Source of the DNA: Promethearchaeia archaeon
GTDB taxonomy: Archaea; Asgardarchaeota; Lokiarchaeia; Sigyniarchaeales; SOKP01
Direction of reading: 5' to 3'
DNA length: 55,527 nucleotides
Assembly (NCBI GenBank): GCA_029856155.1
Contig: JAHQWL010000021.1
Coordinates: 1-55,527 of the forward strand
In this document: positions 5,777 through 41,000 of the stretch, piece by piece
Layout of the letters: every line of letters starts with the position of its first letter
Position numbering within the stretch: position 1 is the stretch's first letter
Position numbers and translations under genes: made by a program
The notes under the pieces: model-generated
What the model saw: the letters and a program-made list of their open reading frames with translations, nothing else
The model's database searches: none
What the model was told of the DNA's origin: nothing

Positions 5777-6349
5777 CTAAAATTTTACTAATTCTTCCTG
5801 CATTAATTTTCTTATATTGTCGATCGCCCATAGAACGTACTTATAACATTTTTTTCCCCATGTACCGTCTTTAACGTATTCCATCATTGCATTGGGATCA
5901 CTGAAATCATACCCAGATAAATTTGGGCAAATTACTGAACCAAATTTCTTCTCGAATTCTTTCGCAAATTGTGCCGATTTCATATAAGCAACGGGAATTA
6001 AATCATTCGACATCTTTTCTCTTCCTTTTCCTCCTAAAATTGCTCCTACTGCAGCACAACCCCCAACTACCGCCCCACATGGACCACACCAGTCTTTTTC
6101 AGACTTATATCCCCCTAATCCCCCAGATAGGGGAATCATAATGTTGTTGATTAATCCATCTTGGATTCCTAGTATATTTAAAATACCTGTTAATGTTGCT
6201 TCCGCACAACCTCCTTCAGTAGGATTTATTTTAGGAAATATTTCTTCAAATTGCTTAAGTGCTTCATCAAACTTTGTATCAATCTCTCTATTCATTACTT
6301 TTTGTTCCATAATTTTTTTCATCTCTTTTTTTTGAATACTTAATCTCAC
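5777..6349 (-). CDS. C_GCAxxG_C_C family putative redox protein
   Basis: GCAE...GPCGAVVGG...FGSVIC...KC pattern; true start may be the internal MEQKV. Confidence 0.85.
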   Translation of the reverse strand: MRLSIQKKEMKKIMEQKVMNREIDTKFDEALKQFEEIFPKINPTEGGCAEATLTGILNILGIQDGLINNIMIPLSGGLGGYKSEKDWCGPCGAVVGGCAAVGAILGGKGREKMSNDLIPVAYMKSAQFAKEFEKKFGSVICPNLSGYDFSDPNAMMEYVKDGTWGKKCYKYVLWAIDNIRKLMQEELVKF

Positions 6350-28326: not shown

Positions 28327-29466
28327 TTACGTTTTTTCTAATTCCATCTGGGAAATTGCTTTTCCAGATCGAAATGGAATATCCTCAAGAGACATACCTG
28401 CTTCAGATTTAAACTTCTTTTTAAAGCTTTCATTTAATGATTGAAAATATAATGATAACGGTAAGTTTTGAGGGCAATTATTATCGCAATTGCCACATTC
28501 TACACATCTATCAGCAACATGAGCTATACGTGTTAATTGGTACGTAGCCTTATCTATATTTTTGTCTTTTCTCTTTTTCTGTAGAATGCAGTCTACACAG
28601 TAGCAAACAGGGCATCCTCTTATACAAGTGTTGCACATAGTGCATTTAAGAAGTTCTGCTATTTTTTCTTTTTGTGAAAGCTTCTCCCATTCTTCCAAAT
28701 CTTTTGCTCGCTTTTCTTTTGCTTTTTCGATTATTTCATTATATTTATCTGTGTGTGCTTTTTTCTCCTTATCTGGAAGTGTTTTTTTCTTGATTCCTGA
28801 TTTATCCAATATATCACTTCCCTTATCAGAATACACTTTTAAGATAATCTCATCTGAATCAACTGGAATTCCAAGATCGCTTACAGTTAAATCAGCGACT
28901 ACCGGAATTTTGCGATAGCATCTCAAACAATTCTCCGCAACAGTAAGATTAAGTTCTTTTGTGCTTCCATCTTCCATTTTGACAATAAGTCCTTTGTCTC
29001 CTACTTTTTCTTTAATAATTTTCGTAGCATCAACATCCTTAATTGATCTCATTTCTCTTGCTGCTTTAGGAAGCATCCCTCGATCTTCTATTCCAATTAT
29101 AAAAAGATTATTGAGATTTACTTGTTTTATTTTAGCAAGTTCAATTAATGCTCTGGTATCACACGGTCGTGCAATAAGACCCACCTTCTCTTTCATTGCA
29201 CCCGCTACGGACTTATGTAAATATTTTGAAGCTGAATCTGTTCTTGCATATCCAAATGCAATTAAAGGAGTTAATGGAAAATCTTTCACATCTTCTTCTT
29301 TTTCTGCTAATTTAGGCTGAACAGTAAATCTATCTATATTCCCGGATTTCTTGTCAACTTTCAATTCAGCACCAATTATTTTGTCTACTGCTTTTTCTTT
29401 TAATAAAGTTGTTAAGATTTTCGGAAAATCTTCAATCTTTATTAAATATTCTGCCATTGCTTCCAT
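28327..29466 (-). CDS. Coenzyme F420 hydrogenase/formate dehydrogenase beta subunit (FrhB/FdhB family)
   Basis: ARPCDTRA, CLRC, ADLTVS, CTMCNTCIRGCPVCYC, CVECGNCDNNCP. Confidence 0.88.
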   Translation of the reverse strand: MEAMAEYLIKIEDFPKILTTLLKEKAVDKIIGAELKVDKKSGNIDRFTVQPKLAEKEEDVKDFPLTPLIAFGYARTDSASKYLHKSVAGAMKEKVGLIARPCDTRALIELAKIKQVNLNNLFIIGIEDRGMLPKAAREMRSIKDVDATKIIKEKVGDKGLIVKMEDGSTKELNLTVAENCLRCYRKIPVVADLTVSDLGIPVDSDEIILKVYSDKGSDILDKSGIKKKTLPDKEKKAHTDKYNEIIEKAKEKRAKDLEEWEKLSQKEKIAELLKCTMCNTCIRGCPVCYCVDCILQKKRKDKNIDKATYQLTRIAHVADRCVECGNCDNNCPQNLPLSLYFQSLNESFKKKFKSEAGMSLEDIPFRSGKAISQMELEKT

Positions 29467-29530
29467 GTAATTCCAACTCTAATTATATACTAATTTTAAA
29501 TATTTTTCTTAAATTTTTTCAAACTATTTT

Positions 29531-29603
29531 ATGTGTTATATGGTGCACCCATTTCTTCAACTGAGTTCTCATTTTTTTAACTCAGCCTCATCAGTAAACA
29601 CAT
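29531..29603 (-). promoter_or_regulatory. Eukaryote-like SECIS element 3' of vhuD
   Basis: Minus strand: AUGUGUU-UACUG-AUGAG-GCUGAGUU-AAAAAAAUGAG-AACUCAGU-UGAA-GAA-AUGGGUGCACCAU-AU-AACACAU. Shows helix I, AUGA/GA core, helix II and A-rich apical loop, 6 nt after the vhuD stop. Confidence 0.88.
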
Positions 29604-29609
29604 TATTTT

Positions 29610-30062
29610 TTAAGCCTTAGCTTTCGCTTTAGCTTTTTCTTGTGTATCGCTTTTTTTTCGTAAAATACTTGGTCCTAGTTCTCGAATTACTTTATCGAAT
29701 TCTGTGGCTACTTTCTGGAACTTTGCACCTTCTGCAGAACTACAAAATTCCATTATTAACCTCTTTGGGTTTATTCCTACTGTTTTAATGACTGCTTTCA
29801 GATATTCAACTAGACGATAAGCAAAATAATTACCACTCTCGTAATCACATTCTCCCGGATATCATCCAACAATCATAACTCCATCAGCGCCTCTACCAAA
29901 AGCTCTCATTACTAGATCTGCTCCTACTCTACCTGTACATGGAACTAAGACGGTTCTTAAGGATGGTGGATACTGTGCTCTAATAGTTCCTGCCATATCA
30001 GCACCACCATATCCTCATTTTAAACATAAAAACGATAAAATTTTTATTTCATTATTTTTCAT
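29610..30062 (-). CDS. vhuD: Hydrogenase delta subunit VhuD/MvhD, selenoprotein with 2 in-frame UGA (150 aa), absent from ORF track
   Basis: MKNNEIKILSFLCLK(U)GYGGADMAG...VPCTGRV...GADGVMIVG(U)YPGECDYESGN...SSAEGAKF; TGA at 30017-30015 (codon 16) and 29864-29862 (codon 67); GAGGTG RBS; TAA stop. Confidence 0.93.
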
Positions 30063-30075
30063 TGTATCCACCTCT

Positions 30076-32052
30076 TTACTCCTCAATAGGTAATAATTCA
30101 TCAATATATGCAACATACTGATTATCTTTATAATGAGCTAGCTCTATAGCTTTTGAGGGACAAAGTGATTCGCAAATTCCACATCCTCTACAGCTAATAA
30201 TATCCACTTGAATTAATCCATTTTCATTGATTGAAATCGCACCATATGGACACGCTTCAATACATTTATAACATTTAGCACAACGTTCATCTAATGGTTG
30301 AGCACGGATTAATTCCATTGTATATTTCTCATTTTTCATAGGTATATTAGCTGAGGAAGCAGCCCCCTTCGCTTGACTAACAGTGAGATCTATAGATTTT
30401 TGTCCTTGACAAGAACCCGCTAAATAGATACCTGGGACTTTTGTATTAATTGGATCGAGCCGTGCATGCCTTTCTTTTAAGAATCCATCCGGTGTTTTTT
30501 CGATATTCATTACCGAAGCTATTTCATTTGTACCTTGAGAAGGCAAAGAAGCTGATGATAATACTACCATATGGAATTCCATTTCTACGATAGAATCTGT
30601 ACCAACTGGTTCAAATTGTATTTTTAGATTTTTAGTGAGAGGATCTTCTTCTATTTTTCCAATTAAACCTTTGATAAATAATATTCCCGCATCTCGAGCT
30701 CTTCTATAGTATTCTTCATACATTTTTCCAGCACATCTCATATCGATATAACTTACAACAATCTCTGAATCAGGGTATTCTGACATTATTAACTTAGAAT
30801 TCTTTACAGATAAATTACAACATACCACACTGCAATACTCATTTGTTTTTAAAGATCTTGATCCTACACAATTTATAAATAAAACCTTTGTAGGACGCTT
30901 TCCATCGGAGGGACGTTTCAAATGTCCAAAAGTTGGACCATTTGGCGCAATTATCCTCTCTAACTGGATTTGTGTAATTACATTCTCATAGCTTCCATAA
31001 CCATAATCATCACCTTGATAAAGATCCCAGCCTGTAGCGACTATTATTGTACCTACTTCCAATTCTAAGATCTTCTCTTGTTGACTAAAATCTATTGCTT
31101 CAGTATCACATGCATCTACACATGCAAAACATTCAATGCAAGAATCTCTTTCAATATCTGAGATTGCAGGAACTGCTTGAGCAAATGCTATATCTATGCA
31201 TTTTCGTGCGGAGAGATTTTCATCAAAGTAATTTGGTATATATACTGGGCATACTTCAGTACATGCACCACACCCAGTACATTTGTCTTCATGAACAAAA
31301 CGTGGTCTTCTCTTTACTTTTACCCTAAAATTACCGATATATCCTTCAACACTAATTACTTCACTATAAGATAAAATTTCGATATTTTCATGTCTATCCG
31401 CTTCAAGCATTTTTGGACCAAGAATTCATATACTACAATCATCGGTGGGAAATGTTCGATCAAGTTGGGACATTCTTCCTCCGATTGTAGTTTTCTTTTC
31501 TACTAAATATACTTTATAGCCTGCATCACCTAAGTCAATAGCTGCACTTAATCCCGCAATTCCTCCTCCAATAACTAGTGAAGTTGTTTTTATTGGAACC
31601 GTTTTTGTAGGAATATCCTCTAATAATTGTGCTCTTGAGATGCCTGCCTTAATTAATTCAATTGCTTTTACATTTGCTTTATCTCGAATTTCTTTTGCTT
31701 GATGAACATAACTACAATGTTCTCTAATATTAGTAAATTCTAAATATCTCTGTGGTATTCCTGCTTCTTTTAAGATTCCATGAAAAACAGGCTCATGGGT
31801 TAAAGGAGTTCAAGCAGCAACAACTACACGATTGAATCCCTTTTCTTCTATTTGTTCCTTTATATATTCAGCTCCACCAGATGTACACATATTTAAATAT
31901 TCATAACTATACACGTTAGGTAGTTTACCAATTTCATCTACAATTTTTGGAACATCTAAAATACCTGCAACATTGATACCTCAGCGACACACAAATACGC
32001 CAACAACTGGCTTTTCATCGTTACTATTTTCATTGGTCTGTTTTCCAGACAA
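30076..32052 (-). CDS. hdrA: Heterodisulfide reductase subunit A, selenoprotein with 3 in-frame UGA (658 aa); the track shows only the C-terminal 444 aa
   Basis: AGGTGA RBS plus TTG at 32052; GVFVCR(U)GINVAG, VVVAA(U)TPLTHE, NIREHCS, IGGGIAG, TFPTDDCSI(U)ILGP, continuous in frame with the ORF starting at 31410; TGA at codons 24, 81 and 209. Confidence 0.92.
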
Positions 32053-32345
32053 ATATATCACCTTAGTTAAACCTAACCTCCTAATTTTTAACGATCATAT
32101 TTCCTCTTAGTTTCTTAGAGTAAACATAAGAAATGTATTATGATCATGTAAATAGTCTATATTATTAAAATTAAATTATTATAACATGTCAATTCTCTTT
32201 TAGTAATATTTCATGAGTTTATAATCAATGTTTAATTCAAAGGACTCATTAAATTGAAACTTATAGAGGAAATTGTTTAATAATTATATTAAGTGAAATT
32301 TTAAAAATTTAGAATAAAAAATAAAGGAAATTGAAAATAAAAAAT

Positions 32346-40139: not shown

Positions 40140-41000
40140 TTAGGATGACCTTGAAGGCATACAAATCCTTAAGCAGTAGCTGCAATAATTATTGTCTAAT
40201 ATGCTTTGTATACACTTGGATCGATCTATATGTGTGATTACACCATTTTCTTTTTCAATTGGAGTTTCAAGAACAGAACCTCCTTTACATTCCCTCACAC
40301 AAGCACCACACTTTTCACAGAAATCTTTTAGGTCACTAAAATCTCTTTCTTTTGTTTCAGGAATTTCTGCATCGGTAGTAATGATACTCCATCTTTGTCT
40401 GGGACCAAATTCCGGGGATAAAATTAATCCAATTCTACCCATAATACCTAAATTTGCTGCAGTAGCATGTGGACCATATAGAAGTTTTCCTCCAAAAGGA
40501 TGGTGAGCTTCACTTTTGTAGCCTTGTTCTTTTAAAAATTCAGTCAATTCCATTGTTACATCACCTAATATTTTATAGACTCGAAATACTTCTATTTCAC
40601 AAACCGCTCCTGGAGCTTCCTTGATTTTATCCCATTTCATTTCCATTCCGAGGACTATAGCATTTTTACCATATACTTTTAGGTCTTTAAAAATATAATT
40701 TTCATTAACAGGCGTATATCCTATGAGATCCACATCAAGTTCTTTAGCTTTTTTTTCAAACTTCTCCCAAAAATCAGTTGGAACCTCTGTTTTCTTATTG
40801 TTTTCATTTCCATATTTTGTTTTTCTTGCTTGTTCGAACCCCTTAAAAGTTCCTCTAAGATACTTACTGAATAGTTTAGCAGTTTCTCGATCTAAGACTT
40901 CTGCCGGACCTAAACTCATGCTAAATAGTTCTTTAGGAACAATAAAAACAAGATTTTCATTTTTTCCAGTATAAGTTGGCTCAATCCCTGCGTCTGACAT
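40140..41000 (-). CDS. QueG/reductive dehalogenase-like 4Fe-4S protein
   Basis: AANLGIMGR..LILSPEFGPRQR, FCEKCGACVREC, CSYCLRIC. Confidence 0.8.
   Translation of the reverse strand: MSDAGIEPTYTGKNENLVFIVPKELFSMSLGPAEVLDRETAKLFSKYLRGTFKGFEQARKTKYGNENNKKTEVPTDFWEKFEKKAKELDVDLIGYTPVNENYIFKDLKVYGKNAIVLGMEMKWDKIKEAPGAVCEIEVFRVYKILGDVTMELTEFLKEQGYKSEAHHPFGGKLLYGPHATAANLGIMGRIGLILSPEFGPRQRWSIITTDAEIPETKERDFSDLKDFCEKCGACVRECKGGSVLETPIEKENGVITHIDRSKCIQSILDNNYCSYCLRICMPSRSS

Follow-up and report, generated by a model that had tools for sequence, protein, structure and literature searches.

On bioinformatic grounds, elements of the lokiSECIS family are taken to direct Sec insertion in Lokiarchaeota (Mariotti et al. 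2016, PMC4989117). According to that description, an invariable AUGA precedes a 9-bp stem and GA follows the stem. The apical loop consists of 11 nt, of which the first five are mostly A and the last is an 'ultraconserved' G, usually with an A before it (PMC4989117). Standard tools are described there as missing these elements. The family has been published for the same hdrA–vhuD gene pair that is treated here, with a single shared element behind vhuD (PMC4989117, PMC11227280), and the main texts of the two papers describe only the core, the upper stem, and the apical loop. In methanogen-type SECIS elements, an asymmetric GAA/A bulge separates the GC-rich lower stem from the upper one, which is short and all GC; eukaryotic SECIS elements possess an open internal loop (PMC4989117). 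A Lokiarchaeal SECIS failed in Methanococcus maripaludis, and no SECIS-binding factor is known in Archaea, as stated in the pertinent passages of PMC11881835. SBP2 is not known in Archaea, and the passages of three papers that touch on it report no Asgard homologue (PMC4989117, PMC11227280, PMC11881835).

Here we describe an element of a 55,527-nt stretch of DNA (the window). As judged from sequence comparison and structure modelling, the segment 29603-29531 on the minus strand is very probably the SECIS of an hdrA–vhuD operon, belonging to the lokiSECIS/Asgard type I eSECIS-like elements and possessing a genuine third arm. The SECIS as such is already published, as are the gene pair to which it belongs and its use for multiple UGA. 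The three-armed architecture of lokiSECIS is apparently undescribed. The main text of Mariotti et al. mentions neither a hairpin in the 3' strand nor a three-way junction; its supplement S4 may show the arm (PMC4989117). The main text of Huang et al. (2024, PMC11227280) does not mention a third arm either, and Fig. S11 of that paper may show it. There is likewise no mention of it in the relevant passages of Sun 2021 (PMC9723677), of a 2026 review (PMC13188914), or of PMC11881835. Nothing was returned by a full-text literature search on SECIS elements with a side hairpin or third helix, and papers combining SECIS with 'three-way junction' were judged unrelated by their titles and the openings of their abstracts.

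The hdrA–vhuD locus and its SECIS element

The first gene of the pair, hdrA, was defined by translation and occupies 30076..32061 on the minus strand, with a tentative start. The start is probably the GTG at 32061, which is preceded by GGAGG; two additional TGA sit upstream of this putative start. The hdrA translation contains three in-frame UGA (31983-31981, 31812-31810, and 31428-31426), and Pfam places ferredoxin-type domains toward the C-terminal part of the product. After a gap of 13 nt follows vhuD/mvhD of the FlpD family (29610..30062, minus strand; 150 codons), the product of which matches PF02662 with an E-value of 2.4e-43 (Pfam). The vhuD translation passes through two in-frame UGA (30017-30015 and 29864-29862) before the UAA stop (29612-29610), and the same two TGA are present in vhuD orthologues. 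All five UGA lie upstream of the AUGA core of the SECIS, at distances of 273 to 2392 nt, and one element presumably serves the three UGA of hdrA and the two of vhuD, as published for the gene pair. One tRNA-SeC(tca) was found by ARAGORN in the 4.1-Mb genome, the tRNA being the sole component of the Sec machinery that was looked at; a tRNA search of the whole 55,527-nt window found none. The closest public relatives of vhuD are from MAGs labelled Promethearchaeota or Promethearchaeia, from one labelled Odinarchaeota, and from some labelled 'uncultured archaeon'.

The three-armed SECIS (29531..29603, minus strand, as are all of its parts) was delimited by the sequence, the minimum-energy fold, the score of a covariance model (R2), and the published lokiSECIS features. 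Helix I begins 6 nt past the vhuD UAA stop, and the six intervening bases are unpaired. Its 5' strand AUGUGUU (29597..29603) pairs with the 3' strand AACACAU (29531..29537), as indicated by the fold, by covariation, and by RNAalifold. A linker of two bases leads to CU (29593..29594), the 5' strand of a putative kink-turn C stem, which pairs with AG (29556-29555). Next come a bulge G-A-U (29592-29590), read from the sequence and from covariation, and G-A (29589-29588), the second half of AUGA (29591-29588). Helix II (29587-29579 with 29567-29559) is an uninterrupted A/U-rich stem of 9 bp, its two terminal G.U pairs included, and is capped by the 11-nt apical loop AAAAAAAUGAG (29578-29568), which opens with seven A. 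On the returning strand, the core GA (29558-29557) is followed by the AG of the C stem, a linker AA, and the third arm. The third arm is a mini-hairpin, AUGG-GUGCA-CCAU (29540..29552), with 4 bp and a 5-nt loop that includes a conserved GC, and a linker AU joins it to the 3' strand of helix I. An initial annotation of this DNA had described the same pieces, and all of them are present on the minus strand at the positions it gave. The stem that it called an 8-bp helix II exists and measures 9 bp once the two G.U pairs are counted, and the region that it called an internal loop is correctly placed and is not open, as it holds the 2-bp stem CU/AG.

RNAfold returned helix I, helix II, and the mini-hairpin together as the minimum-energy fold of 29612-29525 (-17.2 kcal/mol, z = -3.29), and none of 200 dinucleotide shuffles folded equally well. 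Inspection by eye of the apical loop and the junction strands revealed no partner for the GC of the hairpin loop. A terminator was ruled out, as no run of five or more U occurs within 60 nt downstream.

The element displays every listed feature of lokiSECIS, namely AUGA, the 9-bp stem, the 11-nt A-rich loop ending in AG, and GA (PMC4989117), and it also fits the looser Asgard type I eSECIS-like model (Huang et al. 2024, PMC11227280). It shares with these published elements the gene pair, the core, the loop, and the position in the 3' UTR near the stop codon; beyond their description, its conserved parts include a short C stem, a GC(A)-loop hairpin, and a helix that closes the element (PMC4989117, PMC11227280). 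Covariance-model scoring, a check suggested in the initial annotation, gave 92.4 bits with R2, at a rough E-value of 1.5e-20 and with the element itself in the training set. Searched with R2 over the whole window with filters off, the element was the sole one of its kind (runner-up E 0.2), and no second element was found between hdrA and vhuD. No SECIS family of Rfam matched at gathering thresholds in the whole window, nor did any, including SECIS_1 (RF00031), match in 29450-29680 at E-values up to 10, which agrees with the statement that standard tools miss lokiSECIS (PMC4989117). A box C/D sRNA was rejected as an identity: the lone match, sR52 (E 0.14), scored 17.3 bits where the gathering score is 50, and it arose because the element contains CUGAUGA. 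The G of CUGAUGA, which stands before AUGA, is A or U in the remaining orthologues (14 of 17).

The methanogen-type archaeal SECIS was excluded, as helix II contains no GAA/A bulge. The VhuD SECIS elements of Methanococcales and Methanopyrus share with the window element the gene family, the AUGA...GA/AA pattern, and a further stem lying outside the main one, described as a 'short extra stem' with AUGA and GAC/AAC, whereas they carry the methanogen-type GAA/A bulge that the window element lacks (Mariotti et al. 2016, PMC4989117). The eukaryotic type I SECIS (RF00031) has in common with the window element the AUGA/GA core with predicted tandem G.A pairs, the two helices, the unpaired A's atop helix II, the location in the 3' UTR, and, presumably, the action at a distance on several UGA. 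Helix II of lokiSECIS is shorter than the eukaryotic one (PMC4989117), and the third helix in the 3' strand of the window element has no counterpart in the passages on eukaryotic SECIS. The type proposed in the initial annotation, a eukaryote-like SECIS of the Lokiarchaeal kind with an AUGA/GA kink-turn core and apical A's, distinct from the methanococcal GAA/A kind, agrees with these features throughout.

The third arm in other SECIS elements of the genome

Other SECIS elements of the genome were sought with a strict core definition that is blind to the hairpin. It required RUGA, 9 bp in which no more than one mismatch was tolerated, an 11–13-nt loop having four or more A among its first six bases, and then GA or AA. 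A core was regarded as supported when it lay no more than 25 nt after a frame that is free of TAA and TAG, spans at least 50 codons, and contains TGA. These strict cores and the independent ORF criterion replaced a loose three-way-junction descriptor, whose 85 hits in the genome were mostly false. A covariance model, R1, used via the genome search route, retrieved from its own genome itself and one weak hit; it was insensitive and was dropped. A model search with filters off recovered the other elements of the genome that the R1 route had missed. The hairpin was defined as a stem of at least 3 bp, with at least two G-C pairs and a 3–7-nt loop with GC, starting within 8 nt.

The genome contains 26 strict cores, eight of which are supported by an ORF. 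The GC-loop hairpin accompanies all eight supported cores and one of the 18 others (Fisher p 5.8e-6). As a background, 311 of 20000 random genome sites satisfy the same hairpin definition, and a looser one (at least 3 bp and two G-C pairs) is satisfied by 12% of random sites. The exception among the 18 other cores is on contig C74, 109 nt downstream of a small membrane ORF that ends in TGA; it too is probably a real SECIS.

The other SECIS elements of the genome possess a closing helix and a small G+C-rich hairpin located 2–5 nt past the core GA/AA. The stems of these hairpins differ, whereas the loops are alike (UUGCA, UGC, UGCA, and UUGCGU types). The hairpin is CCCAU-UGC-AUGGG behind a second hdrA, AGGAG-UGC-CUCCU behind a 169-codon gene, CCUU-GCA-AGGG behind a vhuD paralogue, GCCCC-UUGCGU-GGGGU in the vhuU element, and AACCC-CUUGCUC-GGGUU behind another vhuD. 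The genes for two membrane proteins, of 89 and 77 codons, have ACC-UUGCCC-GGU and AAUCCU-UGCAC-AGGAUU, respectively. In vhuU and the C30 vhuD, the SECIS and the stop codon overlap, with helix I falling within the coding sequence, and the arm is still present. The initial annotation had taken the third helix to be a special three-way-junction variant, possibly linked to multi-UGA recoding. Neither idea survives this survey: the arm follows every SECIS identified in the genome, and it is carried by genes with a single UGA, namely vhuU and the genes for the 89-aa and 77-aa membrane proteins.

Conservation and covariation of the third arm

For comparison with orthologues, vhuD loci were collected from public genomes; the archaeal loci (L001-L018) were used, and 62 bacterial FlpD loci (L019-L080) were left out. 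Alignment A2 comprises 17 orthologous vhuD 3' UTRs. Its invariant columns (n = 17) include AUGUG of helix I, CU, AUGA, the A's and the AG of the apical loop, and GA, and they also include GG, GC, and CC of the hairpin. AUGA and GA are invariant in 17/17 orthologues, and the SECIS assignment of the initial annotation, which had been made to depend on a conserved core, is upheld in this respect. The hairpin stem and the GC of its loop are invariant or nearly so, on a par with AUGA/GA. The hairpin cells of A2 are 98.5% paired, yet only one pair is altered on both sides; in helix II, seven of the nine pairs covary. Among 30 further orthologous loci from the same family of genomes, 26 yielded a core to the parser, and all 26 of these cores are accompanied by the hairpin, as AUGG...CCAU in 25 and UAGG...CCUU in one. 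Within close vhuD orthologues, the arm is kept as sequence, more strictly than helix II, and the support that it receives at this range is conservation.

Contigs assembled from RNA libraries (Logan, four metatranscriptome runs) contain pieces from relatives that are 88–95% alike and match approximately 29527-29611. The matches are flanked on both sides by unlike sequence, and one contig spans 29528-29766. These contigs, being from relatives, attest the conservation of the element and are not proof of its transcription, 3' end, or strand.

To widen the sampling, vhuD-like genes carrying in-frame TGA were located in 400 genomes belonging to the phylum and in another 15 that were chosen from other families, and 33 additional 3' regions were fetched. 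Model R2 was built from 24 elements and aligned 42, of which 41 are distinct (alignment A5). Model-guided alignments were used, and a MAFFT alignment of divergent SECIS elements (A1), in which AAUGA was paired with AAUGU, was discarded. In A5 (n = 41), pairs changed on both sides were found at 4/4 positions of the hairpin (94.9% of cells paired), 2/2 of the C stem (98.4%), 7/7 of helix I (90.3%), and 9/9 of helix II (94.9%); alignments A4–A6 were fitted to the model structure, so that these pair counts lean toward it, the E-values are rough, and the sequences are related and not independent. When the 3' partners in A5 were slid by 1–3 columns as a control, 31–42% of cells paired. RNAalifold independently predicts helix I, helix II, and the hairpin from A5, with compensatory changes at 20/20 pairs and a covariation term of -9.08 kcal/mol. 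In minimum-energy folds of the 41 single sequences, the hairpin appears in 36, helix II in 33, and helix I in 30. The covariation of the hairpin, which the initial annotation had looked for across orthologous UTRs, is hardly visible there (one pair changed on both sides) and becomes evident across the 41 distinct SECIS elements (4/4 pairs). Together with the RNAalifold prediction, this bears out the claim that the extra hairpin is a third helix in a three-way junction.

The arm extends beyond the close relatives. In at least eight other Asgard families it follows vhuD genes that contain TGA, and it occurs in the elements of collection families f3, f4, f5, f7, f9, f20, f21, and f28, whose hairpin loops end in GCA or GCG. 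The set from other families also includes cores that deviate from AUGA, as well as two type II-like elements whose apex bears a mini-stem. A5 and the best 14 of the 17 rows of A6 together give 55 distinct elements, and the hairpin is present in 55/55 of them, with 47 different stems. The loop contains GC in 49 elements and GCA in 34, GC being absent from 6/55, and the spacing between the core GA and the hairpin is 0–5 nt. The 47 distinct stems are the robust part of the covariation evidence. Since the hairpin is part of the model by which these sets were chosen or aligned, the count was repeated with a parser blind to it. In this recount, 18 of 81 vhuD 3' regions yielded no core to the parser and were left out, and the remaining 63 gave 52 distinct elements. 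The hairpin was found in 50/52, with GC in a 3–7-nt loop in 45/52. In one of the two misses (L121) the wrong core had been chosen, and in the other (L188) the loop measured 8 nt.

A model search at 16 loci of Cys-type FlpD genes (nine of this genome and seven from other classes) found no SECIS behind these genes. One of the 16 loci holds the SECIS of a neighbouring hdrA on the opposite strand, and two weak hits (E 0.42 and 0.62) were recorded at the Cys-type loci. No SECIS was found within 400 nt in two TGA-containing vhuD-like regions, L184 and L187, with one TGA each. On this comparative evidence, the extra helix is real and general: it covaries, its stem is variable, its loop retains GC, mostly as GCA, and it accompanies TGA-containing genes and not their Cys paralogues.

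Other explanations of the hairpin were weighed against these results. It could be a separate signal beside the SECIS, such as an mRNA 3'-end, a stability or processing element, or a site for a regulatory protein. This would suit its position in the 3' UTR, where such signals occur, and the fact that the published SECIS models work as search patterns without it (PMC4989117, PMC11227280), but the hairpin is enclosed by helix I, which covaries at 7/7 pairs, and keeps a narrow spacing of 0–5 nt from the core GA. Moreover, there is no run of five or more U within 60 nt, the arm is present even in vhuU and the C30 vhuD, whose helix I is part of the coding sequence, and it is absent behind the 16 Cys-type FlpD genes. 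We consider a separate signal improbable. A SECIS of eukaryote-like form with two helices, and with a large internal loop whose 3' motif is single-stranded and bound by a protein, is an even less probable alternative. The 47 stem sequences keep pairing across 55 distinct elements, 4/4 hairpin pairs covary, and the hairpin is formed in 36/41 single-sequence minimum-energy folds. These results outweigh, in our view, the conservation of the stretch as sequence, almost without covariation, in close vhuD orthologues and the precedent of the open internal loop in eukaryotic SECIS (PMC4989117). A meaningless chance fold, imaginable for a stem of only 4 bp when loosely defined hairpins occur at 12% of random sites, is a negligible prospect in view of the presence of the hairpin at 8/8 supported SECIS against 1/18 look-alike cores, its invariance in orthologues with a diverged helix II, and its covariation across families.

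Junction architecture and possible roles of the third arm

In the SECIS core, the two or three bases just 5' of the bulge pair with the bases right after the 3' GA; the pairing is CU/AG in the window element, and AAG/CUU, UUG/CAA, UGG/CUA, and UAG/CUG occur elsewhere. We infer from these sequences that the supposed internal loop is a standard kink-turn, composed of a C stem of 2–3 bp, a 3-nt bulge RAU, tandem G.A/A.G pairs, and helix II. The AU of the bulge RAU corresponds to the first two letters of AUGA. The helix II pair adjoining the G.A pairs is the one least often standard, being unpaired in 11/41 elements of A5, which fits a role of helix II as non-canonical arm. Because the hairpin interrupts the non-bulged strand, it forms a three-way junction with the C stem and helix I, the A-rich linkers being 1–2 nt long. 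We likewise infer, from covariation, energy models, and sequence, the geometry of the kink-turn and the way in which the arms stack.

The arrangement resembles the k-junction (Wang et al. 2014, PMC4005666), known from the TPP riboswitch, in which a third helix enters directly across from the loop and is stacked on the C helix. In the window element, however, the C stem of 2–3 bp and 1–4 unpaired bases separate the G.A pairs from the hairpin, which places the junction a short helix lower than the kink-turn. Although the hairpin occupies the non-bulged strand, the intervening short C stem led us to reject the k-junction as a classification (PMC4005666). The apical hairpin of the bacterial SECIS, whose loop bases are the recognition point of SelB, offers a functional analogy to the mini-hairpin and no more (PMC4989117, PMC11881835). 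In bacteria, the element follows the UGA immediately, within the coding sequence; it is devoid of a kink-turn and obeys other loop rules.

In the mechanism that we propose, the 3' UTR element would let Sec-tRNA(Sec) read five UGA across two cistrons. The junction would fix the geometry of the kink-turn by dictating the angle of its arm. The hairpin loop would be the recognition point for an archaeal SECIS-binding factor, either a protein or SelB itself, which would bring SelB/Sec-tRNA to the ribosome. The loop was chosen as the candidate contact because it is the only base-specific conserved feature outside the core. The hairpin would also set SECIS kink-turns apart from the numerous other cellular kink-turns of the L7Ae type. 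The docking of a recoding factor to the hairpin is put forward as a tentative possibility.

The third arm gives a concrete handle on the coupling of a 3' UTR SECIS to far-upstream UGA in archaea, with a stem that is free to vary and a loop that is fixed, and it could be used as a bait in pull-down experiments, as a precise mutational target, and in a better search model for Asgard selenoprotein genes. A fuller proposal would have the GC(A) loop dock an Asgard-specific protein or the C-terminal domain of SelB, recognition be bipartite, and the arm be lost toward eukaryotes; that all of these parts hold jointly is somewhat unlikely. If true, the proposal would mean that the bacterial mode, in which a factor reads a small hairpin loop, is combined in these SECIS elements with the eukaryotic mode, which relies on an L7Ae-type kink-turn, and that the arm may have been lost en route to eukaryotes as SBP2 took over.

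Sequence context of the window SECIS element

The first bulge base 5' of the AUGA in the SECIS element behind vhuD in the window (29531–29603, minus strand) is G on the minus strand (position 29592), and the resulting CUGAUGA gives a weak match to a C/D box in Rfam. In most orthologues, as well as in the contigs from RNA libraries of relatives, the position is occupied by A, not G; apart from the genome of the window, only a few therefore have CUGAUGA. The gene for a protein with an FrhB/FdhB C-terminal domain and a 4Fe-4S domain is located 64 nt downstream of the SECIS element (28327–29466, minus strand), and its start region is kept on the 3' side of the element in the orthologous loci.

SECIS elements behind other frames of the genome

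A frame of 169 codons with two adjacent in-frame TGA codons is found on contig C26 of the same genome (about 63563–64039, plus strand). A full three-armed SECIS element, that is, one with helix I, helix II, and a mini-hairpin in the 3' strand, lies 11 nt 3' of this frame (core at 64051, plus strand; locus L082). If both TGA codons encode Sec, the motif would be G-C-U-U-E-K. Three small predicted membrane proteins of about 60–89 codons each, encoded on contigs C24 (13367–13633), C103 (54551–54778), and C74 (about 5913–6095), all on the minus strand, have one TGA and a three-armed SECIS element behind the frame. The terminal TGA of the C74 frame is 109 nt upstream of the SECIS core, and owing to this distance the frame probably continues past its TGA.

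A type II-like SECIS element is present on contig C29 (core at 40259, minus strand; locus L141), scoring 36.5 bits with R2, the covariance model built from 24 related elements. It comprises an apical mini-stem, the hairpin CUC-UGCUC-GAG, and a closing helix of 9 bp. A frame of 304 codons with no in-frame TGA ends 14 nt before this element; either the element serves another gene or the Sec codon is located farther upstream.

FlpD-family genes and their SECIS elements

The genome of the window has 15 matches to the FlpD/MvhD family, four of which, on contigs C21, C98, C30, and C11, possess two in-frame TGA codons. The remaining genes are of the Cys type, and several of them are fused, with frames of about 800–1150 codons. 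The UGA stop codons of a vhuD paralogue (C30, 550–1011, plus strand) and of vhuU (C33, 26755–26904, minus strand) are themselves the UGA of the AUGA core, and thus helix I and the 5' strand of the C stem lie within the coding sequence. Two three-armed SECIS elements about 1.3 kb apart were observed at an archaeal vhuD locus from a public genome (L016, CAZYEE010000045.1; 558–638 and 1885–1972), one 3' of vhuD and the other upstream of it. In this lineage, the gene upstream of vhuD seems to have a separate SECIS element instead of a common one.
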